Source: Candidatus Pacearchaeota archaeon (lineage in GTDB: Archaea; Nanobdellota; Nanobdellia; Pacearchaeales; GW2011-AR1). From it: DNA of 61,708 bases. The position numbers and the translations under genes are program-made. The stretch is taken from assembly GCA_016186425.1 (NCBI GenBank), contig JACPLR010000009.1:1-61708 (forward strand), in the 5' to 3' direction. Below, piece by piece: positions 17,745-45,954 of this stretch; within the stretch, counting starts at the first letter, position 1; the number at the start of each line of letters is the position of its first letter. The notes under the pieces are model-generated. The model saw only the letters and a program-made list of their open reading frames with translations. It was not told the origin of the DNA and did no database searches.

Positions 17745-19157
17745 ATGAAAAAAAGTTTGTTAATATTATTTGCTGTTATCTTAGCGTCATATATAGTTAT
17801 TGCTCAATCACCTGATATAAAAATTCAGGTGTCAACAACTAAAGAATCCTTTCAGCCAGGAGAGAACATAACGCTAAAAGTAGCTCTTTTAGATTCCCAA
17901 AATTCCCCCATTAATACCAATGTGAATCTTATATTTGAGAATGCTGATAAGACAAAAAAAATAGAAAAAACCTTGCAAACAAATACATTAGTAGATCTTG
18001 ATTTAGGAGAGGGGGTTTCAGCAGGATACTGGTCTGTAATTGCCAGTTATAATAGCATGGAATCTAAAGCAATTTTTAACATAGAAACAAATGAGGCAGC
18101 ATTTTTCTCTTTAGATAACGACATGTTAACTATAACAAATAACGGAAATTCAAGATATACAAAAACAATACAAATTTTAATTGGAGATACTCTTGGAACA
18201 AAGGATGTTGATTTAAATGTAGGAGAAAAAGTAAGTTTCAGACTAATTGCGCCAGAAGGAAATTATAATATAAGAATAACAGACGGAAAAACAACCTTGA
18301 CAAGGGGGAATGTCCAGCTAACAGGAGAGGTCATAGGCGTATTAGATGATCGTATACGCTCGCGTGCCCCAATTACTGGAGCAAGAGTTGAAGGAGGTAA
18401 TGAAGCAAGCACATTAAGTTTGATAAAAAACAATAAGATTGTTTATGCTTTCATTAATCTCTCAATGAATAAAATTTCTTGTATTATCCCCGCATATAAT
18501 GAAGAAAAGACAATAAAAGAAGTGCTAGATATTGTAACAAACCACGAATTAATTGGAGAAGTAATTGTTATAAATGATGGTTCTAAGGATAACACCCATA
18601 ATATATTAAAAGAAATAAAAGGTATTAAGTTAATAAATAATGCAACAAATATAGGAAAAAGCGCTTCAGTTGCTAAAGGCATTAAATTATCTAAAAACAG
18701 GATAATAATGCTTCTTGATGCAGACCTAATTAATTTGAATAAAGAACATATAACAAATCTTGCAAAACCTGTTTTAAATAATGAGGTGGATATGAGTATT
18801 GGCAGGACAAAAACTACTGAAGCAATCTATAAGCTAAATGTTATTAACAAAATTTTTGAGGATTTTGCTTCCGGACAAAGAGTTTTTAATAAAAAAATAG
18901 TAAATAATTTAGAAGAACTTATGAAAATACCAGGGTATTGCCTAGAGATTAGCTTAAATAAAAAAGTAGTAGAATATAACCTTAAAATAAAAATAATTAA
19001 ATGGAATAATGTAATCGCTATTAGTAAAATAGAAAAAGAGGGGTTAGTTAGCGGAATAAAAAAGGATCTTTCTGCAATAAAAGAAATAATAAATGAAAAT
19101 GGGCTTAATGATCTAATTTACCAAAATTATAAGCTAAAAAGACAAATAGAAAGATAA
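17745..19157 (+). CDS. Chimeric ORF: secreted Ig/CARDB-like N-terminal half fused in frame to a GT2 glycosyltransferase
   Basis: Signal peptide MKKSLLILFAVILASYIVIAQ. An internal M241 at nt 18465 begins a typical GT2 start, MNKISCIIPAYNEEKTI...VINDGSKDNT...LLDADL. Confidence 0.6.
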   Translation: MKKSLLILFAVILASYIVIAQSPDIKIQVSTTKESFQPGENITLKVALLDSQNSPINTNVNLIFENADKTKKIEKTLQTNTLVDLDLGEGVSAGYWSVIASYNSMESKAIFNIETNEAAFFSLDNDMLTITNNGNSRYTKTIQILIGDTLGTKDVDLNVGEKVSFRLIAPEGNYNIRITDGKTTLTRGNVQLTGEVIGVLDDRIRSRAPITGARVEGGNEASTLSLIKNNKIVYAFINLSMNKISCIIPAYNEEKTIKEVLDIVTNHELIGEVIVINDGSKDNTHNILKEIKGIKLINNATNIGKSASVAKGIKLSKNRIIMLLDADLINLNKEHITNLAKPVLNNEVDMSIGRTKTTEAIYKLNVINKIFEDFASGQRVFNKKIVNNLEELMKIPGYCLEISLNKKVVEYNLKIKIIKWNNVIAISKIEKEGLVSGIKKDLSAIKEIINENGLNDLIYQNYKLKRQIER

Positions 19158-19990: not shown

Positions 19991-21088
19991 TTATTTTTTA
20001 AATCCATCAATTATTTTAGCAATTTTTCTAACGCTCTCCTGAGTTTTCCACTTGGGTTTGAAACCTTTGGTTCTTTTAATATTTCCTAATAATTTTGCTA
20101 AATCAAAATCTTTTTCAGAGTTAAAAGAAGAAAAATATCCTTTTTCATTAAGGGATTTAGCTAAATATTCTTGTTCTGTCTGCTTTGGTGTCGGAGCAAA
20201 TAACCCTTTCTTATCTAATTCTGCAAGATCCATAACAGTTGTATAACCACTTCTAGAAATAACAATTTTAGCTCTATTCATAAGCTTGTTTCTTAGTTTT
20301 CCTGAAGCATAAGAATAAATTTCAATATTATTTTCTTTATTAACCTTATGATACATTTGAGTAGTATCTCCCAACACAAAAATCTTTTTGCCTTTTAACT
20401 TTTTGCTTTGCTCAATAAGGCTATTAACAAAAGTATATTTAGTATCTAAAAGAAATCCGCTAATTATAAAATAATAATCAATATCTTGTTTTATTTTCTC
20501 TTTTTTATAAGACGACAAAATTCCAATATATTTATGTAAAAGTTTATTTGCATGTTTATTATGGGAAAGCTTGCCTGATAAATTTCTTTTATCCTCAAAA
20601 TCAAGAATAAAAACTAAATCATATTTATTTAAACAGCGATAATTATAAAAATTCACAATTTTAGAGAAAATTTTTATTGGTCCTGATAACAAGATATCAA
20701 CCATATGAGTTAAAACAAAAGAAGGAATATCTTTATCATAAAATCCGTATCTGCAATCAGAAATAATCAAATTAATATTATGTTTCTTAATTAATTCATT
20801 GCAAAAATTCTTTTCTTTTTTTACAGAAAGGGCAGCTTTAAACGCATCCTTAAATATATATAAATAAAAATTAATTCCAGAACCCCTCAAAAGTGGAGGA
20901 AATCCTTCGAAATTATAAAAATCTATGTTTTTATTATTTTTAAATTCACTTTTAAGGAAACTTAGGGCATTCCCAGTTGAAACAATATATACTTTGTTAT
21001 TTTTAGCATAATGCTCAATTAAAGGCAAGCTTCTAGTAGCATGGCCTAATCCTAGTGAATTAACTGCAAATAGTATATTCTTGTTCAT
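19991..21088 (-). CDS. GT-B glycosyltransferase (MurG/GT28/MGT-like)
   Basis: N-terminal FAVNSLGLGHATRSLPLI. The C-terminal region is nucleotide-sugar-binding-like (SRSGYTTVMDLA). Confidence 0.7.
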   Translation of the reverse strand: MNKNILFAVNSLGLGHATRSLPLIEHYAKNNKVYIVSTGNALSFLKSEFKNNKNIDFYNFEGFPPLLRGSGINFYLYIFKDAFKAALSVKKEKNFCNELIKKHNINLIISDCRYGFYDKDIPSFVLTHMVDILLSGPIKIFSKIVNFYNYRCLNKYDLVFILDFEDKRNLSGKLSHNKHANKLLHKYIGILSSYKKEKIKQDIDYYFIISGFLLDTKYTFVNSLIEQSKKLKGKKIFVLGDTTQMYHKVNKENNIEIYSYASGKLRNKLMNRAKIVISRSGYTTVMDLAELDKKGLFAPTPKQTEQEYLAKSLNEKGYFSSFNSEKDFDLAKLLGNIKRTKGFKPKWKTQESVRKIAKIIDGFKK

Positions 21089-21092
21089 TTGT

Positions 21093-21809
21093 TTAATTAA
21101 ATTCTTTTATACTGGTCTCTCCATGAAGTTTATAATTAATAATCTGCCTAGAATAATCTCCTAAAATCATTTTATAACTCCATTCATAAATATACTTTAT
21201 AACGATATTAATTCTTCCATCATTATCAAATCTACGTACGTCCAAAAAAATTGGTTTGTCTTTTAGCATTTTAAACTTTCCAAGATTAAAACAATCCCTA
21301 ACAAATGCATGATCCTCACTGATAACAAATTGTTCATTAAATCCCCCTATCTGATTAAATATCTCTTTTTTAACAAATATGCAAGCTCCTCCAGCATATG
21401 GCGCAAAATGCTGCATGATAAACATTCCATAATTAGCAGCAGAGAACATTAATTTATCAAAAACTCTTTCAGAAATAGGCCTAAAAAAAGAGGCAGCACA
21501 TACTGCCATACTTCTATTAAATTCTTCAATGCTTTTTTTCAAAAAATCTCTTGGCAGAACCACATCTGCATCTAAAAATAATAATAATTCTCCTCTCGCA
21601 ACTCTTGCTCCATTATTTCTTCCAACACTCGGCAATCCACCATCAACAATCCTGCAACCATATGCTTCAGCAATTTCCCTAGTTCTATCAGTAGATTGTG
21701 CATCTGAAACAATGACTTCAAAGTTTTGATAATTTTGTTTCACTAAAGAATCCAAAATTCTTGGCAGGCATTTCTCTTCATTTTTTGTTATAATAATTAT
21801 GCTTAACAT
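21093..21809 (-). CDS. GT2-family glycosyltransferase
   Basis: MLSIIIITKNEEKCLPRILDSL...VIVSDAQSTDRT...LFLDADV (DxD). Confidence 0.8.
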   Translation of the reverse strand: MLSIIIITKNEEKCLPRILDSLVKQNYQNFEVIVSDAQSTDRTREIAEAYGCRIVDGGLPSVGRNNGARVARGELLLFLDADVVLPRDFLKKSIEEFNRSMAVCAASFFRPISERVFDKLMFSAANYGMFIMQHFAPYAGGACIFVKKEIFNQIGGFNEQFVISEDHAFVRDCFNLGKFKMLKDKPIFLDVRRFDNDGRINIVIKYIYEWSYKMILGDYSRQIINYKLHGETSIKEFN

Positions 21810-23414: not shown

Positions 23415-24155
23415 ATGAAATTAACAAAAGAATTTGCCGAAATTATTGGTATGTTCGCTGCAGATGGATGTCTACAAGAAGAGTATATTTGTATGTGGGG
23501 GAATATTAATGAAGATAAAGAATACTATAATAAAATAGTTTGTCCTTTATTCTCGAAAGTTTTTGGTAAACAAGTAATTGCGCATGAAAAGAAAAGTAAT
23601 TCTGTCTATGGATTTTATATTTGTGATAAAAAAATCGTTTCAATTTTTAAAAATTTAGGTTTTTCAAAAAATAAGACTTATAATGTGAAAATTCCAAATA
23701 TAATAAAAGAAAGTGATAATAAAAAAATAATGGCTGGTTTTATAAGAGGTTTTACAGATTGCGACGGATGTTTAACATTCATGAAAAGGAAAGAGAAAGG
23801 ATATAGTAAATTCAAAAGAACATTCAATGCCTATCCAAGAATTTTAATTAATGTGGTATCAAAAAATATTATAGAAGACATAAGCGATTTATTAACAAAG
23901 TTAGAAATAGACCACTCAAGACATATATATAAAAATAAAAGATTAGGTTGGGGGGATCACCATGTCATAACTGTTAGAGGAATTATAGGATTAGAAAAAT
24001 GGAAAGAAAAAATAGGTTTTAACAGCCCAGCCAAACTAACAAAATATTTCATTTGGAAAAAATATGGATTTTGTCCAACTAATATTTCATTAAGTCAAAG
24101 AAAACTTATTTTAAACAATAAATTAGACCCTAATTCTTTTTATAGTCTACTTTAA
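23415..24155 (+). CDS. Free-standing double-motif LAGLIDADG homing-endonuclease-like protein
   Basis: Two LAGLIDADG motifs: IIGMFAADGC and FIRGFTDCDGC. Confidence 0.75.
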   Translation: MKLTKEFAEIIGMFAADGCLQEEYICMWGNINEDKEYYNKIVCPLFSKVFGKQVIAHEKKSNSVYGFYICDKKIVSIFKNLGFSKNKTYNVKIPNIIKESDNKKIMAGFIRGFTDCDGCLTFMKRKEKGYSKFKRTFNAYPRILINVVSKNIIEDISDLLTKLEIDHSRHIYKNKRLGWGDHHVITVRGIIGLEKWKEKIGFNSPAKLTKYFIWKKYGFCPTNISLSQRKLILNNKLDPNSFYSLL

Positions 24156-24161
24156 AAAAAA

Positions 24162-24236
24162 TGCTCCTGGTAGGATTTGAACCTACGACTTCCAGCTTAG
24201 AAGGCTGGCACTCTATCCAAGCTGAGTTACAGGAGC
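24162..24236 (-). tRNA. tRNA-Arg (anticodon TCT)
   Basis: On the minus strand: GCTCCTG..ACTC-AGCTTGGATA-GAGT, anticodon arm CCAGC-CTTCTAA-GCTGG, T arm GTAGG-TTCAAAT-CCTAC, CAGGAGC-A. Confidence 0.9.
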
Positions 24237-29650: not shown

Positions 29651-30655
29651 ATGGAAACACAAGCAGTTTTACCAGTAGAAACAAAATATAGTCAGAATTG
29701 GCATAAGTATAATTTAGCTAAAACACACGAGAAAAGAATGTTCTATCAGCTTCTTCATGAATTATGCCAGATTATTCCTGAACCTGATTATAAATTTGGG
29801 AGACCACCAATACCAATTAAAGATATGATTTTCTGTTTAGGACTAAAGTTATATTCAAATTATTCTGGGAGAAAGGTTATGTCTGATTTAGTTCATGCTG
29901 AAAGAGCTAATTACATTATGAAATCTCCTCATTTTAATACTTTAACGGATTTTTTAGCCTGTGATATAACTTATGATCTCCTTCAGAAGATTCTTACAAT
30001 TTCTGCTATGCCTCTTAAAGAACTTGAAGACCAGTTTAGTATAGATTCAAGTGGTTTTGGTTCATATCAATATGAAAGATGGCAAAGAGTTAGATTTTCA
30101 AGGTCTTATGAAGTTAGCTCAAGAAATTATCTTAAAGGACATGTTTGCATAGGAACAAGAACTAATGTAATTGTAAGTGCAGAAGCAACATACGGCAATC
30201 TTTCAGATGTAAAGCAGGCACCTGCTCTTCTTGAAAAGGTAGGAAAGAACTTTAATATAAAAGAGGTTTCAGCAGATAAAGCATATAATGCCCATAGAAT
30301 ATTTGAAATTATCGAAGAAATGAATGCTAAGCCATTTATAGCTTTCAAATCAAATGCAAATCCAGGTAAGGACTCGCCAGAAATATGGAAGCGAATGTAT
30401 GATTATTTCGTCCTTAATCGTGAAAGTTTCATGAAACACTATCACAAACGTTCAAATGTTGAAACAACCTTTGCCATGATAAAACTTAGATTAGGAGAAT
30501 TTTTAAAGTGCAAAAATTATACAAGTCAGAGAAATGAACTGCTGATGAAGTTTATCTGCCATAACATAACTTGTCTTGTTCAAGAAATATTTGAGAGTGA
30601 TGTTCACGTTGATTTTCGTGAATGCATGAAAAAATATGTTGAGGTTAAAATTTAG
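29651..30655 (+). CDS. DDE transposase (IS4/IS5 superfamily)
   Basis: DDE triad context: FSIDSSGFG, EVSADKAYN, and YHKRSNVETTFAMIK (Y-x2-R-x3-E-x6-K). No clear terminal inverted repeats were identified. Confidence 0.8.
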   Translation: METQAVLPVETKYSQNWHKYNLAKTHEKRMFYQLLHELCQIIPEPDYKFGRPPIPIKDMIFCLGLKLYSNYSGRKVMSDLVHAERANYIMKSPHFNTLTDFLACDITYDLLQKILTISAMPLKELEDQFSIDSSGFGSYQYERWQRVRFSRSYEVSSRNYLKGHVCIGTRTNVIVSAEATYGNLSDVKQAPALLEKVGKNFNIKEVSADKAYNAHRIFEIIEEMNAKPFIAFKSNANPGKDSPEIWKRMYDYFVLNRESFMKHYHKRSNVETTFAMIKLRLGEFLKCKNYTSQRNELLMKFICHNITCLVQEIFESDVHVDFRECMKKYVEVKI

Positions 30656-33490: not shown

Positions 33491-34123
33491 CTAATCCATC
33501 CAGACATCATATAGTCTAACAGAAACTTTTTTTTCATGAAAGAATCTTTTTAATTCATTTACATATTCTATGGGAACTAAAATATCTCCCTTTCCTAGTT
33601 TTATAGCATTAATTTTCTCAGCCAATCCAGCATATTTTTTCTTGCCTATTTTAAATCCAAATAATTTTCTAAAAATAGAAACTCTTTTGCTATCTGGCTT
33701 TATATTTTCAAAAGAAAATATTGTATAATGCTTGACTTTTTCAATATCTGACTTATATTTTCCATAAAGCATTATTCCCGTATTCATAACCGCTCTTTTA
33801 AGATCTTTCCATTCATTACTATCTAATTTTCCCGAAATTATGGATATTTCATTAGCAAGGCCTTTCAATTCCCATTCTTTATAAGAGTTTGTTTTATAGT
33901 AAGCCTCAAGTATATTATTTATCTTTTTTTCTAATTTCTCTGATTTAATATCTCTAACATCAATAAAGAGGTCAATATCAGACTCTTCATCAAAATCTCC
34001 TCTTGCAACCGAGCCATGCAAAATAATCCTGTTTATTTCACCATTTTCCACTTTAGATAAAAGATAAGAGGCAAAATCCATTGCATAGGCTATAAGTTCA
34101 TTTGTTTTCAATATTTTTTCCAT
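33491..34123 (-). CDS. Pol-beta-superfamily nucleotidyltransferase (MNT-like) with a C-terminal extension
   Basis: ILHGSVARGDFDEESDIDLFID is the GS-x-D-x-D NTase motif. Confidence 0.7.
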   Translation of the reverse strand: MEKILKTNELIAYAMDFASYLLSKVENGEINRIILHGSVARGDFDEESDIDLFIDVRDIKSEKLEKKINNILEAYYKTNSYKEWELKGLANEISIISGKLDSNEWKDLKRAVMNTGIMLYGKYKSDIEKVKHYTIFSFENIKPDSKRVSIFRKLFGFKIGKKKYAGLAEKINAIKLGKGDILVPIEYVNELKRFFHEKKVSVRLYDVWMD

Positions 34124-34523
34124 TTTTTAAGCCTCCCAAGTTATCATTTATAATTTTCCTAAGCTCATTAAAATTCCTTATGGATTTGTTAATTCTATTT
34201 TTCGGCTTTCTATTCTCATAACACAAAGCAGTTCTTTCCAATTCAATAGATTTCATTAATAATAAAATTCCTTGTTTTGAAGGAAAGTCAAATGGAATTC
34301 TTTTTTTAATTAAATTGTCGCTTTTAAAAATTCTATGGTCTATTTGATCTCCAGAACCCTGCAAAAGTCTTAATTTATGCAGATATATAGCCAAAAGCTC
34401 AACAGAGCCTTGAGAAATATTATAGCCGATATTTCTCTGATTTTCTTCAATGCCTTCTTCAATAGCTTTCTTTATGTTGGCCAAATGCTCTTTGTAAGCT
34501 TTTTCATGCTCTTCTATTTTCAT
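34098..34523 (-). CDS. HEPN-like helical protein (putative partner of the NTase)
   Basis: All-helical 141-aa ORF that overlaps the NTase gene by 26 nt. No clear Rx4-6H motif was seen, so the call is tentative. Confidence 0.4.
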   Translation of the reverse strand: MKIEEHEKAYKEHLANIKKAIEEGIEENQRNIGYNISQGSVELLAIYLHKLRLLQGSGDQIDHRIFKSDNLIKKRIPFDFPSKQGILLLMKSIELERTALCYENRKPKNRINKSIRNFNELRKIINDNLGGLKNGKNIENK

Positions 34524-35255: not shown

Positions 35256-38200
35256 TTATGCAGAACAAAATTCACCTTTCCATTGATTAAATGAATTAAG
35301 AACATTATCTACATATTCTTGATTATCTCCACCCTTGTAAACTTTCAAAATGCAAATTAATTGTTTAACATCATCATCTAAATTGCATTTTGTATAACTA
35401 CCAGCAGGATTATCAAATGCATTTTTTAATTCTGCTGATGCTTTTTGAACTTGGACTGTTGGATTGTCAGCAAAATCCTCTCTGCTTTCTAATTCATCTC
35501 CATAACCCATAAAAAATCTATGAGTCTCATCTACAGTCATGCTAGATTCCCATTGAGATATAGAAGTTAATAAAGCTCTAAAGCTTTCTTCACTAAATCC
35601 ATTTGGATAAGAATTAGAATATTTCTCAAAATAAGTTTTATATGTTTCATACTTCTGATCATAATTATTAGATACGCCTTGCGTATTTTTAATATCGCAA
35701 TTCAATGACGTCTGAACAGAAGAAGTATATCCAGGTTCATTAATAATTTCTGGTTGAGAAATGAAATTTGAATTAGATTTACAAGAAAGAAAACCATAAT
35801 AATCATTATTCTTCCTTACATCGCTTTTTGTAAGTGCTTCTTTGCTTACGCTATCCTCTCTATTTCCTCCAATTATTTCTAAATTATCACCATTAACAGA
35901 CACAATAATTCCACAATGTCCCAAACTTCCTGCTTTCAAATTCGCAAATGTAACAGGACATCCACTTTCCCTACAATTACATAAAATATCTCCCACTTTA
36001 ATATTATCTAATTGTTCTATAGAATAAGCATTACAATCATATTTTCCAGGATCGTCTCTTATCTTAGTAAAATAATTTGAATGTGAAGAATCAAAAGGGA
36101 AATTTAATCCTGCCTTTTTTACAACGTAAGAAATAAATACTGCAGACCAAGGAACATTTTTACAATTTTGTGGTTGTAGATTTATAAAGTTATAATATTC
36201 TTTTAATACACTATTTCCTTCAGTACTACATTCTTGAATTTTTACATAATTCCATCTATTATATTCACTTAAAGCAATATTCGCAAGTATATTTTCTTCT
36301 CTAACTCCCTCTTCCTCCACTTTTCCAGTTTCAACCTCTCTTTTCTCCTCCTGTCTTAATATAAAATTTATCCAAGAAATCTCAGCCATAGCATGATTAA
36401 CTCTTGCTCTGTCAAACAAGATTCTAGCATCCTGGTCAATTGTTGGTATAAACTTGCTTTTCAAATAATCAAGCTTTGCAAAAAGAACTTTAGCTTCGTT
36501 TTCAGATTCATCAATAACTAATCCTGTTGCAAACAACTTGGCAATTCTGCTTTCAATTTCATTTAATTCTCCTTCAATTTCTCCATTAATTCCTATTCTT
36601 TTTTGATTTTCTATTTCATCTAGCTGCTCTGCATATTTATTCAATGTATCAGTTGTTGCATTCCTGATTCCAGCAGCTCCCGGAGTTAAAGCAACATTAA
36701 TAGAATTTTGATCAAGCCAGCAAGCAACTTTCTGGTCATCACAATAGCCTACTTTCAGCCATCTTTTAATATTTGTTGGCCCGCCAGGATTATTTGTAGC
36801 ACAAACTCTTACAATTCCACTATTGTAAATTTGCGGATTAATTAACTCTTCAGTTCCTGCTTGAATATTGGGATTTACCAATGATAATGCTCCCGAAGTG
36901 CCGGAAATGCAGGCTCTCTCGCTTGTTATTTGCGTGTTTGTTAGCTGATTCTGAATATATTTATCTCTTAAATAATCCAAGGCAAATGAAGTTGATACTT
37001 GCTTGAAACCGCATTCTTCCTGCCCGTTAACCCTCACACAAAGCTGCTTAAATCCAGATGGAGCTGTAAAGTCTCTTGCCTCGCTAGTATACTCTCCTCT
37101 TCCAACAAAACCAGTAGCAACTGTTACAGCACCTGTCGGCTGGAAAAATGATTCTCCAGGAGCATCTCTTAAATAAACACTATAATAAACTCCGGAATCT
37201 TTTCCTGCAAAAATATGATAAAAGACTTTATAGTGTGAAGTAGCAGGTATTGTTGCATCACTTTGTTTTATCTCGTCAAACCAGGCTGAAAACTGCGGAG
37301 GAGAATCTGGCTCAATTAAAGTCTGAAATTTTTTAGGATATTTTGTTGAAACAAAAGATTTGCATATTTGTGTTCCAACATCTTGAGTTGACCTTAACTT
37401 ATAAGCATTAAAAGCGCTCTGCCCGTATTGATTTGTAAAAAAGTTAATTGAATTCTGCATATTGCTCCAAGCTGCCTGAACATTCAAATACTCTCCCCCG
37501 CCTCTAATACCTCCTTGCCCTGTTGCAAACTCTAATAACTTGGGAATAAAAACATTAAGTATAGGAGAAACTTGTTTCCAGAAAAACTCGCACTGATACA
37601 CTGCAGTTATCTCATCACAAATTCCAACATACCTTCCTGTTGTAATGCTTTCCTGCAGGCAGTCTCGCGAAGCTTTTAATATAGAAACATAATTATCAAT
37701 CCCAGCATGAACTCCTGTTAAACAAACCGGAATAAAAATTCCTTCCTTGTAATTCGGCAAGCATAAAAATAAACTTCCGGCAATTCCGCTCTGCACAACA
37801 TCATTAACATAATACTTTCCTCCAAGATTACAGCGAGATGAAGGGCAGATTACAGGATCGCAAACATTAAACAACAATTGGCAATCTTTTGGCGACATAA
37901 AATCAGCGCATTGAGTTATTGCATTATTTGTTGCAGGATTCCCGACTTTAATTCTTCTGCCCAAAATATTGACAAAAGCAACCCCCGGCTTGTATTGGCT
38001 TGCTGCCTGTTGCAAGGCATTAATTGAATCTGCAACCTTTCTTTTAGCTTCAGAATCTGACAAACCATAAAATTGCGTTGCTGGCTGGCCTGTAAAAGTA
38101 TTAAACTGCTGGCAATTATCATCGCCAAACCCTGAATCAAATTCAGCCCTTCCATTCTTGCCAACATTGCACAGCCAGAAACTTGAAACCAATCCAGAAT

Positions 38201-41200
38201 CTTGGTAAACTTTAATATTTCCAAATGCAGGAAGTGTCTGCCTTGTCGCAGCATACCATCCATTAACTAAATCAATAGGAACAATTGCAGGCATGCCTTT
38301 GTATGGCTCTGTTTCATAATACCTTACTTCAGGATCTTTGTAAGGATTTTGATAAGATTGAGAATCTAGTTTCTGAAGAACCCTGCCATTATAAGTTTCA
38401 GTAAGGCTATCTTTTATTGTTTTAGTATCTTTTTCATTTATTTTTTTTGAAGTGTCAACTTTATTTCCATTTTTATCATAAACCTTATCAAAATCAAGAG
38501 TAAACTTATCTAAAGAATTTGGAATAGAATTTAATGCAACATAATAAGATGTCGATCCTAAAATAACTGAAGTTACAGGAGTTGCTTTATCTAATCCCGC
38601 AAATTGCCCATTAATAGTATCAACCCTTGCGCCATAATAATAATCAGTAACTTGCGCTCCTAAAGCTGTTCTAGGTGTCAAAACTCCCATTTTACCAGCT
38701 ATTCCACTAGCTTTTGCTTCGCTCTCAACTTTCTTCGCAATCTCAATTTCATCCTGAATTTCTTTTGCCTTGCTTAAGCTTGTGTATAACTTTCTTTCAG
38801 TCATTTCCTTAAGTTCAGGATTATCCTTTATGTTAGGATCATTAAGAATTCTTAACCTTGTTTCAATATCTCTCATCTCGGGATAACTTATGCTATCTGG
38901 AGATAATCTTTCTTTTTTAATAACATCACTGACTTTTATTGGATTTTCTCCTTTAGGATCTTTAAATTCAAAATTATTGCTCCCATAATTTTCAATTAGA
39001 TAATTAATATTCAGATCAGTGGATTTTTGAATGTTAACTTCTTTTCCTCCCAACAAACCAGATGATTTCACAACATCTGGTGTTGTGCTTTCCATATTTT
39101 TTATTCTCTGGCTTACATCATTCATATGTTTTGCAATTAGCTCAACTTCTTTTTCAATTGCATTGCTGTTTTTCCTAAAGCAATCGTCAACACTCGCATA
39201 TCTTCCTTGAGTATTTTTCATTTCTTCCGCGCATCTCTCATGCCATCCCCCCTCTCCTCTCATAACTTCTTGCCTTGCAATTGCCTTGCCTCCAAGATTT
39301 GCAAATAAATTTTTAACCTGCAATGCAGCAGAAGTTGCAAAGCAAGCTGCCTTCATTCCCTTAACAACACTTCCAAGACTTTCTGAAATATTCTGCCACT
39401 TAGCAATGCTCTCATTTAATCTTTTAATTCTTTCAGCAGCTTTTTCAGGATTTAATGGGAAAGCTCTTTTCTCAATTCCAATTGCATAGCTGACATTTGC
39501 ATAAGAAGCTAAATTATTAATTTGAGGGGTAATTCTTATTCTGGCAACTCTCTGGATATTTATCTGCTGAACATAAACATCCCTGCCGCAAATAGAAGCT
39601 CTGCTTCCAACAAAAATATTTTCTGTTTCTCTTCTAGAGCTTCCATCATAAACACAATTTCCAATAATTTCTGCAGCTTGCTCATCAAACCTTCCTAATT
39701 GAATATTTGTTTCAGGTTTTCCAGTTGATAAATCATTGCCAGGAAAGATTAAATAATCGCCAGTTTGTTTCGGAGTTTTCAAATCACCATCAACTAAAAT
39801 CTTAACATCAAGCTTATCAGAACTAGGATCTTCAACACTTCTTAACTGAAGAACATGTGTCTGCCCGTAAAGCTCAAAAACAAAACTTGCTGCATCAGAA
39901 TTTAGCTGAGAATTGCTCAAAACACTAGTTCCTGCTGGCAGCTCCTTTTCTGAATTAGGATATTTTTCATTAAATCTTAAAACAAGATCTGCTAAAACCT
40001 TTCCTTTTTTAGTCCCGCTTGCAAGTCTTATTGCTTCAATCAAAGATTTCTTTCCATAAGTTTCAGGATTTTCAACTTCTTTTGCCTGAGAATAATACGG
40101 AACATCTCTGTAATCCTCCTCAACAACTTTATACTGATCAATAGAACTGCTAAAATAATTTTCAAATACACTATCTCCTGTTGTTATCTCATTAGAGCTA
40201 ATAAAATTTGAGAATTTAACGTCCTTACCTTGATAATCACGAATACTTTCTCCTTGTTTTATTATAGCTATTTCATATTGCTTATTATTATAATTTAAAC
40301 TTTGAAATCCCGTATTAACTTGTTGATTTGATAAAATATTTAATCTCTGTTTTAATTCATCAGTTAATTGCTGACCATTATCTAAAGCAATTAAAACAGC
40401 ATAAGAACTTCTGTCTAACTTCGATATTCCAACACTGCCCAAATAAATATCCGCGTTTCCTCCACTATATAATTTCTCTCCGGGAGAATAACCAACACTA
40501 TTGCTTCCTGGAAAATCAAGAGCAACATTTTTTAATTTTAGCTGAAGGCTAAATTGCCTTTGTCCGTTAGTTGTTTGGCACGAACCTATCACTGTTCCAG
40601 AATCAGCTCCGCTTGTTACGACATTTGTAACCTTGCATATTCCTCCGGCAATTAAATCTCCCCTATAAACATCTTGAACATCCTGGTCAAAAACAATTGT
40701 TGCTTTCTTCTCAGGCCTGACAGCATCAACATAAGTTACAGAATAAGCAGCACTGCAATAAAATCCTGGCAAGGCTCTTTCAGAAGACCTTCCTTTCTGC
40801 ACAAAAAAAGAATCAATCCTCCTGTTTGCATCAGAATAAACAGAAATCCTAATTCCGGTAGCTTCAATAGAATCAACTCGTATAAAATTCTTTCCATCCA
40901 TAAAAGTGTATTGAGGATAATTTGCAGCCCATTCAGCATCGCTTAAAACCGGAATATTTTTTTCATTAATTCCTGTTCCAAATGCATAAGAAGAGCTGTA
41001 TTGAATTCTTGCAGTTAAATTTCCTGCAACAAAATCACTTAAATTTCTTTCATTTGGCTGCTGTTTCAAAATTATTACAACATAACCAACATTATCTAAA
41101 GATGGAAAACCATTCTGCCCTATTTTAGGTGAAAGCCCGTATCTTGCTGGCTGGTAATAACTCACTCCAGTAACACCATTAGGAAGCATTCCAGAATAAC

Positions 41201-42164
41201 TGAAAGTCATTGCTCTTATATCCTGCGGATTTATTGACGGATTTATCTGAAGCGCTTGTAATTTACAAAAAACAGGAACATTTTGTTCAGCTAATAAATC
41301 ACTTCTTACAACAGCAGGTGTGCATCCTCCGGGAGCAATTTGCAGAATAAAATCCTGCCTCTCTCTGCAAAATTCTCTTGCAGAGCTTGCATTTCCTCCA
41401 TAGATAAAAGGATATAATGCTGATGAAGGAACTCCCCCATAAGCTCCACCATAACTCCCTGCAAATCCTGGCCTCAATTGTGGATTAGAATAAAAATAGC
41501 TTCCTCCAGCCCCATTAAACTGCCCGCCAACATTGCTCCCATAAAACCTATCACTGCTAGTCACAGGATTGCTTGCAAATCTTTGTGTTCCAACATTTAT
41601 TCCAGTACCACTGCTTGTAATTGGTTGGGCTAAAACAAATGATATTAAAAAAATAATTAAAACTAATAATAAGAAAATAAGCATAAAGAATTTATTAGTT
41701 AATGAGTTGCTGCAAACACTAGTTAAATTAAATAATCTTGAATTATTACAAACACCTGTTAAATTAAATTGATTACTGCAACTTAGTTTAGGATTATTAG
41801 TTAATGAATTATTGCTTGCCTTAAATTTATTATAATTACTTTCATTACTTAATCTAACTGAATTAAACCTAGTTGTTTCTATATTTTCAGATTTAATATA
41901 ATTTCTACTGCTATCTAAGTTATTGTTAATCTTTTTATTATATTTTGAATTATAAAAAATATTTAGATCCTTTAACTTATTATTATCTTGCTTACTAATT
42001 AAGTTGTTTTTTATATTTCCAGATTTATTATGATTTCTATTACTATTCAATTTATAATCAAGTTTATTACCCAATAACTTAGTAAATTTTTTCATTTCTA
42101 CATTTTCAAAAATACCATATGATTTCCCATCTATTTTTTTATTTTTCTCTTTTGTTTTTTTCAT
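35256..42164 (-). CDS. Giant (2302 aa) membrane-anchored, Cys-rich surface protein with a C-terminal DUF2272/CHAP-like domain and a lytic-transglycosylase-like domain
   Basis: Uninterrupted 6.9-kb ORF. It has an Asn-rich N-terminal 160 aa, then a TM/signal segment MLIFLLLVLIIFLISFVLA (residues 161-179). C-terminal motifs are PWSAVFISYVVKKAG ... GHCGIIVSV..LEIIGGN and LLTSISQWESS. Confidence 0.8.
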   Translation of the reverse strand: MKKTKEKNKKIDGKSYGIFENVEMKKFTKLLGNKLDYKLNSNRNHNKSGNIKNNLISKQDNNKLKDLNIFYNSKYNKKINNNLDSSRNYIKSENIETTRFNSVRLSNESNYNKFKASNNSLTNNPKLSCSNQFNLTGVCNNSRLFNLTSVCSNSLTNKFFMLIFLLLVLIIFLISFVLAQPITSSGTGINVGTQRFASNPVTSSDRFYGSNVGGQFNGAGGSYFYSNPQLRPGFAGSYGGAYGGVPSSALYPFIYGGNASSAREFCRERQDFILQIAPGGCTPAVVRSDLLAEQNVPVFCKLQALQINPSINPQDIRAMTFSYSGMLPNGVTGVSYYQPARYGLSPKIGQNGFPSLDNVGYVVIILKQQPNERNLSDFVAGNLTARIQYSSSYAFGTGINEKNIPVLSDAEWAANYPQYTFMDGKNFIRVDSIEATGIRISVYSDANRRIDSFFVQKGRSSERALPGFYCSAAYSVTYVDAVRPEKKATIVFDQDVQDVYRGDLIAGGICKVTNVVTSGADSGTVIGSCQTTNGQRQFSLQLKLKNVALDFPGSNSVGYSPGEKLYSGGNADIYLGSVGISKLDRSSYAVLIALDNGQQLTDELKQRLNILSNQQVNTGFQSLNYNNKQYEIAIIKQGESIRDYQGKDVKFSNFISSNEITTGDSVFENYFSSSIDQYKVVEEDYRDVPYYSQAKEVENPETYGKKSLIEAIRLASGTKKGKVLADLVLRFNEKYPNSEKELPAGTSVLSNSQLNSDAASFVFELYGQTHVLQLRSVEDPSSDKLDVKILVDGDLKTPKQTGDYLIFPGNDLSTGKPETNIQLGRFDEQAAEIIGNCVYDGSSRRETENIFVGSRASICGRDVYVQQINIQRVARIRITPQINNLASYANVSYAIGIEKRAFPLNPEKAAERIKRLNESIAKWQNISESLGSVVKGMKAACFATSAALQVKNLFANLGGKAIARQEVMRGEGGWHERCAEEMKNTQGRYASVDDCFRKNSNAIEKEVELIAKHMNDVSQRIKNMESTTPDVVKSSGLLGGKEVNIQKSTDLNINYLIENYGSNNFEFKDPKGENPIKVSDVIKKERLSPDSISYPEMRDIETRLRILNDPNIKDNPELKEMTERKLYTSLSKAKEIQDEIEIAKKVESEAKASGIAGKMGVLTPRTALGAQVTDYYYGARVDTINGQFAGLDKATPVTSVILGSTSYYVALNSIPNSLDKFTLDFDKVYDKNGNKVDTSKKINEKDTKTIKDSLTETYNGRVLQKLDSQSYQNPYKDPEVRYYETEPYKGMPAIVPIDLVNGWYAATRQTLPAFGNIKVYQDSGLVSSFWLCNVGKNGRAEFDSGFGDDNCQQFNTFTGQPATQFYGLSDSEAKRKVADSINALQQAASQYKPGVAFVNILGRRIKVGNPATNNAITQCADFMSPKDCQLLFNVCDPVICPSSRCNLGGKYYVNDVVQSGIAGSLFLCLPNYKEGIFIPVCLTGVHAGIDNYVSILKASRDCLQESITTGRYVGICDEITAVYQCEFFWKQVSPILNVFIPKLLEFATGQGGIRGGGEYLNVQAAWSNMQNSINFFTNQYGQSAFNAYKLRSTQDVGTQICKSFVSTKYPKKFQTLIEPDSPPQFSAWFDEIKQSDATIPATSHYKVFYHIFAGKDSGVYYSVYLRDAPGESFFQPTGAVTVATGFVGRGEYTSEARDFTAPSGFKQLCVRVNGQEECGFKQVSTSFALDYLRDKYIQNQLTNTQITSERACISGTSGALSLVNPNIQAGTEELINPQIYNSGIVRVCATNNPGGPTNIKRWLKVGYCDDQKVACWLDQNSINVALTPGAAGIRNATTDTLNKYAEQLDEIENQKRIGINGEIEGELNEIESRIAKLFATGLVIDESENEAKVLFAKLDYLKSKFIPTIDQDARILFDRARVNHAMAEISWINFILRQEEKREVETGKVEEEGVREENILANIALSEYNRWNYVKIQECSTEGNSVLKEYYNFINLQPQNCKNVPWSAVFISYVVKKAGLNFPFDSSHSNYFTKIRDDPGKYDCNAYSIEQLDNIKVGDILCNCRESGCPVTFANLKAGSLGHCGIIVSVNGDNLEIIGGNREDSVSKEALTKSDVRKNNDYYGFLSCKSNSNFISQPEIINEPGYTSSVQTSLNCDIKNTQGVSNNYDQKYETYKTYFEKYSNSYPNGFSEESFRALLTSISQWESSMTVDETHRFFMGYGDELESREDFADNPTVQVQKASAELKNAFDNPAGSYTKCNLDDDVKQLICILKVYKGGDNQEYVDNVLNSFNQWKGEFCSA

Positions 42165-42183
42165 TTTTTCAAAGGGTTTATTT

Positions 42184-44133
42184 TCATCTTAAATTTAAAT
42201 TCGCTCTCGCACTTTCATATAACTCATAATTCTGCTGCAACTGGTCAAGATTGCTTGGAGCAGGCAACGTGTCAATTGATATTTCAATTTTATTTGCATT
42301 TTTCAAATCACTATTCAAAATATAATCTTGTATTTTTCCTCCCGCGCTTAAAGCATTGCTTAGTGTTTGGCTCGGAATGCTAACATCAAAACACTGCTGA
42401 TTCTTTTTTCCAAAAAATCCTAACAAGCCAGACGCTGGAACATCAACACATTGCCTTGTAGAGCTTCCAGGAATTGTCAAAGAACTTCCAGAGAATACCT
42501 GGATGGAAACATTGTAAAGCCCTTCGCCCAACTTTATTTTTTTGCCTTGGTAATCTCCAGATAATAAAGCAACACTAAAACTATTTTTCTCGCTCTCAAA
42601 ATTAATCACGGCAACATCTCCTTCCTGTCTTGGCTTAAATTCCTGCCCACTAACAATCAACCTTAATTCCAGCTCATAAAGTTTGCTTAAAGGAACATTA
42701 ATTGTATTTGGCTCGTTTGTTGAAACAATCACTTCTTGAGGCAAATAACCTTCTGCCTTTGCAATAATCTTGCCATTAATGCATTGAGGAAATGCTGCTG
42801 AAAGTTTTGCATCCTTGCCAGCAATCTCTGTCTTGCCTATAAGACATTTTGTGTTAAAGCAAACAAAATCAATATCAGATTCAATAGGATCTAATTCAGG
42901 GCTGTAAGCATCATAAGTGTAAACATCCATTCTTGTGTTTTTGTAATTGCAAATCTCATCAATAGTTCCTTCTTCGCTAACACTCTCTCCCTCCAATGAT
43001 TGTCGTGGAACACTTTTATCAACAACAACAGAAACCGGAAACTGAAATATTTCCTCCTGATCATAAACCTGAATTAAAACAGGATAATAAATATCGTAAA
43101 CAAAATGATAAGGCACATAACAAAATCCAATAATTCCCATTCCTTGTTGAAGTCCAACAGGCTCTGAAATTAACAAATTTCCGTCAGCAGGCCAGATTTC
43201 AATTCTTGTCGGCCAGTTAGGATTATACATAAAGTTAACTTGCTCATCACTTTGGATTTCATCAACTATAAAATACTTGTTCTCTTTCTTTTTCAAATCA
43301 TAATAATCTCCCTTAATTTTCAAAGTGCCTATATTTGCGCTTAATCCTGTTCTAATATCATCAACAACTTCCTGTGCTTTCCATATTTTTGGAGCGCAGC
43401 TTAATTCACTTCCAGTTACTGGCGCGTAATTATACATAACATCTACAGAATAATTTTCCAAAAATGAGTCTTTTTTCTCTCTTTCATAAATTTCTCTGGC
43501 TAAATTATAAAATTTTCCGAACTTGCTCACAACTTCTATATCATAACTTGTCCTTCTAGAACTTGAATCGCCTTTTGAAGCAGAAATTTCATTGCTTACA
43601 CCAACTAAAACTCTATTATCAAGAATTTTAACATTAGTTTCCAAATTATTTCCGGTTTCAACACTAATTCCTTGCTTGACAAAATCAGAAAAATCACATC
43701 TCTTAAGTTCCTGATCTAAAAAATCCTCTAACTGTGATTCTATTTGCGATTTAGAAGGAACTTGTTCTTTAACAATACCATTAGCAGAAACATAATACCA
43801 ATAAGGAACAGGTGTTCCAAGAAAATCAAGTTGCGATGAAAAGGGTGCGTACTGGCTGCCTTGCTTGAATTCAGGAACTTCAATATAGCCTCCCTGGCCT
43901 CCTGCAATTTTTAATGCTTCTAAAGTATCTTTCTTAACACAGCCCTCAAAAAAAGTATAAACTTCTGAAAATTCTCCTTGATTTTGCGAAGCAAAAAGCC
44001 GGTCTCTTAAGACATAAACTGTTATTCCTAAAGCAACAACTAAAACTGCCACAATTATAAAAATTGTAACTTGTCCTCTTTTATTTTTTATTTTGTCTAA
44101 TTCACCTCTTTTACTTCTCATTCTTCCTCCCAT
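42184..44133 (-). CDS. 649-aa secreted protein with an archaeal class III (type IV pilin-like) signal peptide
   Basis: N-terminus ...KIKNKRGQVTIFIIVAVLVVALGITVYVL ([KR]G-Q followed by a hydrophobic stretch). The C-terminal region looks like a beta-sandwich (GKIIAKAEGYLPQEVIV). The gene ends 19 nt upstream of the giant ORF. Confidence 0.7.
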   Translation of the reverse strand: MGGRMRSKRGELDKIKNKRGQVTIFIIVAVLVVALGITVYVLRDRLFASQNQGEFSEVYTFFEGCVKKDTLEALKIAGGQGGYIEVPEFKQGSQYAPFSSQLDFLGTPVPYWYYVSANGIVKEQVPSKSQIESQLEDFLDQELKRCDFSDFVKQGISVETGNNLETNVKILDNRVLVGVSNEISASKGDSSSRRTSYDIEVVSKFGKFYNLAREIYEREKKDSFLENYSVDVMYNYAPVTGSELSCAPKIWKAQEVVDDIRTGLSANIGTLKIKGDYYDLKKKENKYFIVDEIQSDEQVNFMYNPNWPTRIEIWPADGNLLISEPVGLQQGMGIIGFCYVPYHFVYDIYYPVLIQVYDQEEIFQFPVSVVVDKSVPRQSLEGESVSEEGTIDEICNYKNTRMDVYTYDAYSPELDPIESDIDFVCFNTKCLIGKTEIAGKDAKLSAAFPQCINGKIIAKAEGYLPQEVIVSTNEPNTINVPLSKLYELELRLIVSGQEFKPRQEGDVAVINFESEKNSFSVALLSGDYQGKKIKLGEGLYNVSIQVFSGSSLTIPGSSTRQCVDVPASGLLGFFGKKNQQCFDVSIPSQTLSNALSAGGKIQDYILNSDLKNANKIEISIDTLPAPSNLDQLQQNYELYESARANLNLR

Positions 44134-44245
44134 TTACTTTATGTTTTATTAGCTCAATAATTTCACTATTAATATCCTTTTCTATTATTCCTTTAAATCT
44201 CTCCCAAAGTTTCTCATCCTCTATAAGAAGCAAGTATTTTTTCAT
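44111..44245 (-). CDS. Possible 44-aa ribbon-helix-helix-like micro-ORF heading the giant-protein operon
   Basis: Translation MKKYLLLIEDEKLWERFKGIIEKDINSEIIELIKHKVNGRKNEK (a strand-helix-helix pattern). It overlaps the 649-aa ORF start by 23 nt. Too short for the ORF track. Confidence 0.3.
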   Translation of the reverse strand: MKKYLLLIEDEKLWERFKGIIEKDINSEIIELIKHKVNGRKNEK

Positions 44246-44468
44246 CCTCTTCACATCCTAAATTAATGATAATTAAGGTAAAATTAGATATATAAATCTT
44301 ATTATTAAGTTAATTACTAAGTAAGTTAGTAAGAAAAGTTAATAGGCAGGAAAAATTTATAAATATTTAGATACTTTAAAAATAATTAATCATAATTATC
44401 TCTTGGAACTTCTTATTCGTCTATCATACTCTTCAATTTTTTTCTTAATTTTTCAGGATTGGATATGG

Positions 44469-44815: not shown

Positions 44816-44920
44816 TGGCCCTGCCAGGAATTGAACCTGGGTCCTATCCACGTCAAGGATATGTCCTTTATGGGTTTATTAACCTTAATTAAATAATACT
44901 GACCATTAGACTACAGGGCC
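44816..44920 (-). tRNA. tRNA-Val (anticodon GAC) with a 33-nt non-canonical intron in the D loop
   Basis: On the minus strand: GGCCCTG-TA-GTCT-AATGGTCA[gtattatttaattaaggttaataaacccataaa]GGAC-A-TATCC-TTGACGT-GGATA-GGAC-CCAGG-TTCAATT-CCTGG-CAGGGCC-A. Removing 33 nt leaves a 72-nt cloverleaf. Confidence 0.85.
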
Positions 44921-45954
44921 GTTTTAAATGGTAACTTAAGATCTTTATATAAATCTTGCGACATATAATTAGGAACTTCCTTAAGATAAATTGTTTTATT
45001 GTTATAAGCACGATTATAAAACCTAATGATATGTTTGTGATTTGAACTTCCAACAATTTTAAAATATTTCACTACATTTTCCCATTTATTTGTACCAACT
45101 TCTTTTCCAGTAAAATAAGTAAAAATACCTATATCTTTCCCAATTTTATAAACTTGATCAAGTAAAATAGGGTTATGGGAATAAAATTGAACACAAAATT
45201 GACTTCCTCCTCTTCCTCTTCTTGAAACAGATCCGTCAGTATCAACAAGTCCCCTTAAACAAGCAATAGCTAGTTTTTGATTATCAAAAATAATTTGTGG
45301 GATACAAGACTTATTTCTTATTTTATTGCCATATTTCAAACCAAATTCTTTATTTAAAAAAGAACATAATTTATTCGAATAAACGGTTAGGTAAGAGGTA
45401 TTATGAATTTTATTTTTCTTAATTGAAGATGAAATCCCAAATAATTCTTCAACTAATTTGTTTATATAAATAAAATAATTTAGATCGTAACGATAATCTC
45501 CAGAAATCCTCACAAAGTATTTTGTCATCGTTCCATCTCCTAAATAAGTTCCTATGAACTCTGCTAATTTTTCATTAACTTCCGGCAATAAGATCTCTTT
45601 TGAATTTGAATAGGAAGAATGTTTAATTGCTTGTCTTCTCCATTCCTTAATCTTGTCTGGATATTTTCTTTCCAAAGACTTAATCCCTTTTTTTCCACCA
45701 ATTGAAGCACCCCAATTAGCTGACAAATAGGTAACTTCAAGAGATTCTTTATCGATTAATAAATATTCTATGAGATAATTAAATAAACTTTCTGGAATTA
45801 AAAATTTTTCTTGAGCATATTCCTTAATTGTTGAATATGGAATTTTTAGGCTAATGCTTAATTTTCTAAGAGAACCTATTCTAGAAGCTACATTAAACAA
45901 CAATTCTCTTTGCTTACCTTTATTTAACTTAACTCTTCTTTCATGTTTATTCAT
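44911..45954 (-). CDS. Free-standing LAGLIDADG homing-endonuclease-like protein with an N-terminal HTH region
   Basis: LAGLIDADG motifs are LAEFIGTYLGDGT and IACLRGLVDTDGS. The N-terminal HTH is LRKLSISLKIPYSTIKEYAQ. The last 10 nt overlap the 5' end of tRNA-Val. Confidence 0.75.
   Translation of the reverse strand: MNKHERRVKLNKGKQRELLFNVASRIGSLRKLSISLKIPYSTIKEYAQEKFLIPESLFNYLIEYLLIDKESLEVTYLSANWGASIGGKKGIKSLERKYPDKIKEWRRQAIKHSSYSNSKEILLPEVNEKLAEFIGTYLGDGTMTKYFVRISGDYRYDLNYFIYINKLVEELFGISSSIKKNKIHNTSYLTVYSNKLCSFLNKEFGLKYGNKIRNKSCIPQIIFDNQKLAIACLRGLVDTDGSVSRRGRGGSQFCVQFYSHNPILLDQVYKIGKDIGIFTYFTGKEVGTNKWENVVKYFKIVGSSNHKHIIRFYNRAYNNKTIYLKEVPNYMSQDLYKDLKLPFKTAL

Follow-up and report, generated by a model that had tools for sequence, protein, structure and literature searches.

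The stretch considered here, called the window throughout, spans 61,708 nucleotides of contig JACPLR010000009.1 (assembly GCA_016186425.1), from a Candidatus Pacearchaeota archaeon. Its minus strand carries a three-gene operon, and the two larger genes of this operon occur side by side wherever the family can be followed. In the direction of transcription, the first gene is a micro-ORF (ORF, open reading frame) at 44111-44254 if read from a GTG codon (47 residues), or at 44111-44245 if read from ATG 44245 (44 residues). The second is a middle gene at 42184-44133, coding for what we name the 649 protein after its 649 residues. The third, at 35256-42164, codes for a giant protein of 2302 residues. 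A first-pass annotation of this DNA, made from the sequence alone, had described three co-directional, closely packed minus-strand ORFs with a 23-nt overlap and then a 19-nt gap, and the ORF listing confirms this layout. Two independent gene calls return the same 44-residue micro-ORF and let the middle gene begin at ATG 44121, probably its true start, which makes a protein of 645 residues and an overlap of 11 nt with the micro-ORF. A candidate promoter of the operon, the TATA-box-like sequence ATTTATATA (44289..44297, minus strand), can be read about 45-50 nt 5' of the ATG of the micro-ORF. Comparable AT-rich, TATA-like DNA lies directly 5' of the 649 homolog in loci that do not have the micro-ORF.

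Relatives of the 649 protein, collected with two short peptide patterns, are present in 480 GTDB species genomes, and 80 loci fetched from this set were analysed. The N-terminal core of a giant protein is encoded directly 3' of the 649 homolog, on the same strand, in 79 of the 79 loci whose sequence continues downstream. A micro-ORF lies directly 5' of the 649 homolog, or overlaps it, in 48 of the 80. The three genes, supposed at first sight to form one operon, are a conserved unit, then, with the pair as its constant part. Loci of the group that has the micro-ORF place the operon between rpL44e-rpS3Ae-NDK and TFIIB-rpS8e-LSM, in the window and in distant species alike. The other 32 loci usually have a tRNA-Val(GAC) gene upstream and a tRNA-Leu(TAG/CAA) gene just 3' of the giant (26 of them, in the range L011-L083, were covered by the tRNA scan). 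This tRNA-flanked setting is presumably a second conserved genomic context, belonging to a different sub-lineage. Across the loci compared, identity amounts to 39-63% for the core of the giant, 41-70% for the 649 protein, 47-84% for the ribosomal protein rpS3Ae and 67-88% for the micro-ORF product. The possibility that the 649 and giant families share a domain was ruled out (hhalign of family against family, prob 2.5%).

The sources of the homologs of both large proteins are all labelled Pacearchaeota, Woesearchaeota or Nanoarchaeota. Because of these labels, and because the housekeeping genes of the window (TFIIB, rpL44e, rpS3Ae, NDK, SRP54/FtsY, tRNA-splicing endonuclease, GINS) are archaeal, the host is taken to be a DPANN archaeon (Diapherotrites, Parvarchaeota, Aenigmarchaeota, Nanoarchaeota plus Nanohaloarchaeota) of the Pacearchaeota/Woesearchaeota type. 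This supports the earlier assumption of a murein-less DPANN host; the producer of these proteins has no murein of its own. Whether the operon belongs to this host by descent has to be considered, as it might be part of a provirus, a phage-tail-like element or a genomic island. Local GC at the operon is 0.33-0.36, in a window at about 29-30%. A DUF2272/CHAP domain of the giant, described below, has its closest structural neighbours among phage proteins, and among the relatives there are giants with a 'phage tail tip lysozyme' domain. ORFs for LAGLIDADG proteins, a DDE transposase and a nucleotidyltransferase lie close by, while tRNA genes flank the pair in some loci. The composition, however, has another source. 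The giant ORF is slightly richer in GC (0.337, against 0.305 +/- 0.031), as the first-pass annotation had it, but the signal of codon usage or of foreign DNA that this might have conveyed is not there. GC at third codon positions (GC3) is 0.210 in the giant gene and 0.246 in the 649 gene, for a window mean of 0.218 +/- 0.045. Since the excess sits at second positions (GC2) while GC3 is average, it reflects amino-acid composition and not codon choice. Furthermore, distant species have the operon at this very place, between rpL44e-S3Ae-NDK and TFIIB, a 649 homolog exists in each of the 480 species genomes, and relatives of the operon proteins are absent from 2.9 M viral contigs. An arrival as foreign DNA is therefore very improbable, and for the operon as a whole it is effectively refuted by GC3, by the housekeeping synteny and by the empty search of viral contigs. 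For the same reasons the operon is native and vertically inherited; an acquired look is limited to the tail modules of the giant.

More than 2,124 homologs of the 649 protein are known, aligned over their full length at 43-72% identity and all annotated as hypothetical. The family has no match in a Pfam scan and none in the PDB when its profile is compared with the sequences there. The N-terminus of the protein contains the site KRG/QVTIFIIVAVLVVALGITVYVL (the slash marks the cleavage point). It fits the FlaFind pattern of archaeal class III signals, [KRDE][GA][ALIFQMVED][ILMVTAS]x3 and then a hydrophobic stretch near the N-terminus, and no other site in the 61.7-kb window does so. In the window protein RGQVTI is followed by 20 residues with a mean Kyte-Doolittle hydropathy of at least 2. 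The class III pattern, taken as a strict regular expression, is satisfied by 89 of 120 homologs. Over the family the N-terminus reads [KR][GA]Q[VI]T[IL]F[IV]II, and the glutamine at +1 is invariant or nearly so. The class III (prepilin-type) signal proposed for this protein is hence borne out, as a motif of the whole family. As a separate observation, two homologs (P0131 and P0133) and two loci (L020 and L047) show duplicated basic segments resembling 'NLVKSKRS' before the KxQ cleavage motif, which look like a tandem repeat of the n-region of the signal.

Known archaeal class III proteins are pilins, archaellins and the sugar-binding proteins of the bindosome, which are substrates of PibD or EppA. 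With these the 649 family shares [KR][GA]/Q and some 20 hydrophobic residues in more than 100 members. A glutamine at +1 is reportedly also present in EppA-type substrates, as Szabo et al. are said to have described in 2007. There are differences as well: at about 630 residues the protein is far above the size of structural pilins, and it has neither DUF361 nor QxSxE beyond a Q-x-T. The likeness to large tip or minor pilins is conceptual only. An AlphaFold2 (AF2) model of the protein, with a predicted local distance difference test score (pLDDT) of 89.3, starts with two helices, 14-42 and 52-75. It divides into an alpha/beta head (about 52-380) and immunoglobulin (Ig)-like beta-sandwich domains (about 394-620). 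Foldseek returns domain-level matches only, with Ig-like arrays of Gram-positive pilus adhesins (TM 0.1-0.15). They are confined to the C-terminal Ig-like domains, and the globular part has no match with a pilin fold.

The giant protein has more than 831 homologs. The part that they share extends from about residues 160-250 of the window protein to about residue 1930; residues 1-160 and everything after about 1950 are not common to them. Homologs start at a hydrophobic segment (about 160-179; 41628..41684, minus strand) that ends in VLA/QP, has a Kyte-Doolittle peak of 3.44 and could be a signal peptide or a signal anchor. An N-terminal Sec-type signal peptide is present in 118 of 120 homologs (median start at residue 5), with an AxA/Q-like site in 109 of 120. 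Because these signal peptides align with the segment of the window protein, the latter is most probably a signal peptide that is cleaved off. The first description of the giant as Cys-rich (it has 45 cysteines) with one strong hydrophobic segment is correct, but its anchoring by a single transmembrane helix is doubtful. What precedes the segment is an N/K-rich low-complexity extension (residues 1-160; 41685..42164, minus strand), the longest N-extension among 120 homologs. Its GC at first codon positions, 0.175, is lower than that of every other ORF of the window. The true start may be M161, with 160 non-coding codons upstream. Composition favours this view; against it, the frame stays open over all 160 codons, beginning 19 nt past the stop of the 649 gene, and in L021, the nearest relative, an open N/K-rich frame likewise follows closely on the 649 stop.

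Beyond the signal peptide, translation and homolog alignment outline a G/S/Y-rich low-complexity spacer (180-254; 41403..41627) with a conserved 'SNPQ..PGF' motif. This is followed by an N-core (255-880; 39525..41402) that displays the nearly invariant block RQDFxxQIAPGGCxPAVVRSDLLAEQNVPVFC. A middle region (881-1269; 38358..39524) has a conserved IGIEKRA...ACFATSA block and then a variable stretch. Conservation peaks in the C-core (1270-1830; 36675..38357), which has columns invariant in homologs. All these segments lie on the minus strand, as does a long helical hairpin or coiled-coil stalk (1831-1959; 36288..36674), modelled by AF2 with high confidence as helices from 1831 to 1943. The stalk region is common to 118 of 120 homologs. 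Altogether the core amounts to about 1,700 residues, dozens of which are invariant, many of these being cysteines. The AF2 model of the giant covers residues 1250-2302, from an alignment of 77 rows. Two beta-rich domains of the core, 1269-1419 and 1619-1830, are confidently modelled (pLDDT above 90). The stretch between them (1419-1619; 37308-37910, minus strand) has a pLDDT of 36-60, though it is the most conserved of the family. It contains six cysteines within 30 residues, an invariant CDPVxCPxSRC block and a mildly hydrophobic helix-loop-helix, VVQSGIAGSLFLCLP-NYKEG-IFIPVCLTGVHAGI, with hydropathy of 1.1-1.6, kept in homologs. In a Foldseek search of the C-half against the PDB, the core matches only an ApaG-like beta-sandwich (E 4e-3), with nothing at E<=1e-3. 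When BFVD is added to the PDB, domain A (see below) and generic beta-sandwiches are all that is matched. Matches of PDB profiles with huntingtin polyQ and with calbindin, obtained in family searches, were dismissed as due to low complexity or chance.

A large secreted protein of this kind could belong to an S-layer-like scaffold, in which the giant would make a canopy on a membrane stalk provided by the 649 protein, its tail being a surface decoration that is in some cases enzymatic. The pair is universal, apparently single-copy and set in a housekeeping neighbourhood, and both of its members contain beta-sandwich domains. A large secreted protein encoded in one operon with a smaller, membrane-anchored beta-sandwich partner is also the arrangement of SlaA/SlaB in Sulfolobales. 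There is, however, no homology with that system: the 649 anchor is N-terminal and prepilin-type where that of SlaB is a C-terminal transmembrane segment, the gene order is reversed, and the window giant is sequon-poor and far more conserved. Nor do PDB and Foldseek searches reveal a sequence or fold likeness to solved S-layer proteins. Near-ribosomal conservation and dozens of invariant cysteines are unusual for proteins of that class. N-x-S/T sequons are depleted in the mature giant (residues 180-2302), with 7 observed for 20.5 expected from composition; such a scarcity is in itself unusual for a large archaeal surface protein. Finally, the window codes for another large surface protein, accompanied by glycosyltransferases. 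We consider the scaffold unlikely, while giving it real weight. The other protein, at 13800-17375 (minus strand), is of secreted type, with 1191 residues, Sortilin/BNR-like repeats and a Big_7 domain. Three glycosyltransferase genes lie beside its gene (17745-19157, 19991-21088 and 21093-21809). It is an alternative candidate, in the same organism, for an envelope or S-layer protein.

At its C-terminal end the window giant had been credited with two domains reminiscent of peptidoglycan-active enzymes. The first of these, domain A (residues 1960-2140; 35745..36287, minus strand), stands on firm ground. It is recognised as DUF2272 by Pfam (PF10030, 62-67 bits for a cut-off of 27, E 7e-17 to 2e-18), next to a weak CHAP match at E 0.02, and an exhaustive representative search finds 722 representative relatives. 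Its motifs PWS2007AVFISY and GH2083CGIIV, which contain Ser2007 and His2083, align with the consensus PWSAAFISY / HCDIV / IGGN of 145 homologs. The AF2 model (1959-2129, pLDDT about 95) has a papain-like fold of the CHAP/NlpC-P60 type. Foldseek associates it with a phage DUF2272 protein (E 5.6e-11, TMt 0.64), with CHAP/C51 endolysins and with the lysin Ly7917 (prob 0.99). Such proteins belong to the NlpC/P60-CHAP-amidase cluster of papain-like enzymes, where DUF2272 members have a serine in place of the catalytic cysteine (PMC10318531). Domain A superposes on its counterparts in Ly7917 (PDB 5d74) and in the DUF2272 protein of Caulobacter phage Ccr34, and like all DUF2272 members it departs from CHAP/NlpC-P60 hydrolases by a serine at the nucleophile position. 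It is distinct in being fused to the end of a 2,000-residue archaeal surface protein. Sequence and model together thus predict a peptidoglycan amidase/peptidase-like module.

The case of the second domain, domain B (residues 2141-2302; 35259..35744, minus strand), is less clear. This orphan module, apparently all-helical, has no match in Pfam (isolated C-terminus) or in the PDB (domain B profile), and SLT (PF01464/GH23) is not detected in the isolated C-terminus of the window giant even at E<=10. Yet its motifs ISQWE2206S, FMGYG and ILKVYKGG come in the same order as motifs I-III of SLT, and the consensus over eight homologs is ALLvAIaQkESslG / LMGYG / CILsIYnqG. Aligned by hhalign with SLT domains from sister giants, domain B reaches prob 22% over 36 columns or 43% over 125 columns (E 2.5e-4 for the latter; 1e-3 to 2.5e-4 overall). 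All motifs are then in register, and the strength equals that of a control in which SLT was aligned with Phage_lysozyme2. A lysozyme-like (lytic transglycosylase-like) fold is thus probable for domain B, as far as sequence can tell. Of the pair of wall-enzyme-like domains initially proposed, domain A is established by Pfam and by its fold, and domain B is no more than a probable case. In the window giant domain B sits where close relatives have SLT, and it also ends the giants P0316, P0355, P0056 and P0114. It is found inside the N-core of P0024 (residues 337-481), away from the end, and in a 598-residue protein, P0334, it (residues 170-331) is next to Peptidase_M23. With such a distribution it seems to behave as a mobile wall-related module.

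Similar variety prevails over the whole family. In close relatives of the window giant the domains encoded 3' of the stalk are SLT, Phage_lysozyme2, GH3, Amidase_3 or Glucosaminidase, and the post-stalk tails of 116 homologs fall into at least 45 BLAST clusters. The pairing of DUF2272 with domain B is unique to the window giant among the 120 best homologs. A wall-hydrolase tip is not a fixed device of the giants, which have at least 45 unrelated tail clusters, most of them with no recognisable domain. On sequence evidence it is an exchangeable accessory, typical of the near relatives of the window organism and not a constant of the family. By eye, some tails (P0078 and P0048, for instance) carry SLT-like ES/GVMQ motifs, and Cys/His papain-like ones, that Pfam missed.

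This organisation is like that of polymorphic toxin systems, in which close homologs keep the N-terminal region while their C-terminal domains are unrelated and exchangeable. The giant might, then, be a released effector that lyses nearby bacteria for scavenging, in which case the 649 protein would be an accessory of secretion or maturation and there would be no stable attachment. Several types of murein hydrolase do occupy one position in close relatives, behind a conserved N-terminal region and with hypervariable tails. Domain B has been shuffled into the site found in P0024, and a protein with an M23 peptidase has it too. A murein-less producer would, moreover, need no immunity protein. The core, by contrast, with its 1,700 residues and invariant cysteines, far exceeds known toxin delivery regions in both size and conservation. 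Pfam and PDB profile searches reveal none of the known trafficking, repeat or pre-toxin domains, and the downstream genes vary between loci. Most tails have no toxin-like domain, and the gene is fixed at a core-genome position, not in variable islands. A freely released toxin is for these reasons distinctly unlikely.

Giant proteins of this sort have been noticed before. The first-pass annotation mentioned giant transglycosylase proteins in DPANN symbionts, correctly so (PMC8204110, PMC9723730). Castelle 2021 (PMC8204110) reports large murein-transglycosylase proteins in these archaea, proposes that they bind and degrade bacterial walls, and cites earlier sightings, among them the AR20 genome (Castelle 2015). 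The same idea is repeated in Vigneron 2022 (PMC9723730) and in a 2024 paper in the ISME Journal. With this Pacearchaeota/Woesearchaeota murein transglycosylase family (fam00969-type), which comes from the same lineages, the window giant shares its core, at 43-51% identity over about residues 160-1950. The members compared (P0002, P0007, P0008 and P0013) have PF01464 at their C-termini and are named 'transglycosylase SLT domain-containing protein' at NCBI. The window member differs in having DUF2272 and the orphan, probably lysozyme-like domain where Pfam sees no SLT. The available parts of this literature mention SLT only. They describe neither an orphan core nor polymorphic tails, and neither an obligate pilin-like partner nor a micro-ORF, all of which thus appear, as far as these texts go, to be undescribed before. 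A further likeness, by description only, is with the 'Archaeovorin' of Omnitrophota (West-Roberts et al. 2023, bioRxiv 10.1101/2023.11.21.568195). This protein is also very large and secreted, has occasional SLT-type domains, neighbours genes with a pilin-type (class III) signal, and comes from an ultrasmall putative predator or symbiont. It differs in being bacterial, in exceeding 10,000 residues with many enzymatic domains, and in belonging to a full type II/IV secretion locus.

Taken together, these features suggest a lineage-wide surface complex whose exchangeable tips, most of them wall-degrading, would be turned towards bacterial partners, a proposal that we regard as evenly poised between right and wrong. 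Export and processing of the 649 protein would follow the route of type IV prepilins. Its hydrophobic N-terminal helix would then keep it in the membrane or at the tip of a pilus-like fibre, with its alpha/beta head and Ig-like domains facing outward. The giant, probably exported via Sec, would be held at the surface by this partner, an inference drawn from its having no other anchor. It would consist of the Cys-rich core of about 1,700 residues, the helical stalk and an exchangeable distal tail. In the window protein this tail would combine the Ser/His papain-like DUF2272 domain with the probable lytic transglycosylase-like domain. As both modules seem directed at walls, the assembly would bind to the murein of a partner or prey bacterium and make local cuts in it. 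The idea that the pair serves to attach to, or breach, another cell stays conjectural. The 44-residue protein could be a small conserved accessory, with a part in regulation or in assembly.

Several observations weigh against such a scheme. An interaction between the two large proteins is suggested by nothing other than the invariant adjacency of their genes. The window ORFs scanned include no prepilin peptidase (peptidase A24) and no pilus ATPase or platform protein next to the 649 gene. The core of the giant has no recognisable fold by Pfam, by family profile against the PDB or by Foldseek of its C-half, and the composition of the 160-residue extension of the window giant looks non-coding. 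In domain A a serine stands for the catalytic cysteine, and the literature yielded no DUF2272 member with a measured activity (PMC10318531). The fold of domain B is modelled with low confidence (AF2, all-helical, pLDDT 24-69). Among 25 representative tails previously without annotation, only one has a Pfam domain (TSP_3), so that wall hydrolysis cannot be the core function. The core could instead be a structural envelope protein; that the family persists without a hydrolase domain in most of its members is a point for the S-layer-like scaffold discussed above. A bolder variant of the proposed surface complex would make the pair the host-contact machine of Pacearchaeota and Woesearchaeota. There the 649 protein would mount the giant at the tip of a type-IV-like fibre or on a membrane stalk and the tails would cut the wall of the partner, while the hairpin of region 1419-1619 would be membrane-active, pore-forming or fusogenic, and so open up the envelope of that partner. 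This we think improbable.

Pacearchaeota and Woesearchaeota, with their minimal genomes, are among the most widespread uncultivated archaea. To our knowledge, nobody knows their hosts or their mode of contact with them, and the sole published clue we are aware of is the presence of very large murein-transglycosylase proteins in some members. These giants now appear as one side of an operon that is universal and vertically inherited, in which the giant is always accompanied by a partner with a prepilin signal. An orphan core of some 1,700 residues would carry the wall-cutting modules as interchangeable cassettes, and neither core nor partner resembles any characterised protein. To be sure, the giant family itself had been noticed, though it was uncharacterised; the new content is the set of regularities at the operon level, together with the orphan core. 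A vague annotation is replaced by a defined complex and defined tail domains, which are concrete targets, and hosts might be predicted by pairing a catalogue of tail types with the bacteria that co-occur. If the host-contact machine were true, it would offer a molecular way into the question of how bacterial hosts are exploited by these archaea.

The smallest member of the operon deserves a few words. The 44-residue product of the micro-ORF, MKKYLLLIEDEKLWERFKGIIEKDINSEIIELIKHKVNGRKNEK (44111..44245, minus strand), is small and conserved, and by eye it follows a beta-alpha-alpha pattern. The consensus MKKYLLLIEDEKLWEKFKxxIxKDIN[ST]EIIxLIK is matched in the loci at E 1e-13 to 1e-24, and an independent assembly also has the 44-residue ORF called as a gene. 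The micro-ORF is a real gene. It had been likened to ribbon-helix-helix (RHH) regulators, an identity that Pfam and PDB profile searches do not demonstrate. A profile of 25 orthologs finds no relevant RHH match in the PDB. In Pfam no ortholog has a significant RHH match; Arc is matched by a single one (E 0.05), and RPAP3_C is the most frequent of the weak matches. The strand-helix-helix succession KKYLLLI / EDEKLWEKFKxxI / DINSEIIELIK is possibly RHH-like nonetheless, judging from sequence pattern.

As for the surroundings, extra insertions flank the operon of the window on both sides: a LAGLIDADG ORF, a nucleotidyltransferase pair and a transposase. The first, a free-standing LAGLIDADG_3 ORF at 44911-45954 (minus strand), lies between the micro-ORF and rpL44e, at a spot that is empty in loci L002 and L003. 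On the other side, between the giant gene and TFIIB, an insertion relative to other genomes is located at 33491-34523 (minus strand). It consists of an ORF for a 210-residue nucleotidyltransferase (Polbeta/NTP_transf_2) overlapping a 141-residue ORF that has no Pfam match, a pair that resembles MNT/HEPN toxin-antitoxin systems. The transposase ORF (DDE_Tnp_1, IS4-type; 29651-30655, plus strand) is immediately 5' of TFIIB. A second free-standing LAGLIDADG_3 ORF, at 23415-24155 (plus strand), abuts a tRNA-Arg gene (24162-24236). Finally, a 130-residue ORF at 456-848 (plus strand) matches the Rad51/RadA profile at positions 8-139 only, out of 244, and may be a split or truncated radA.

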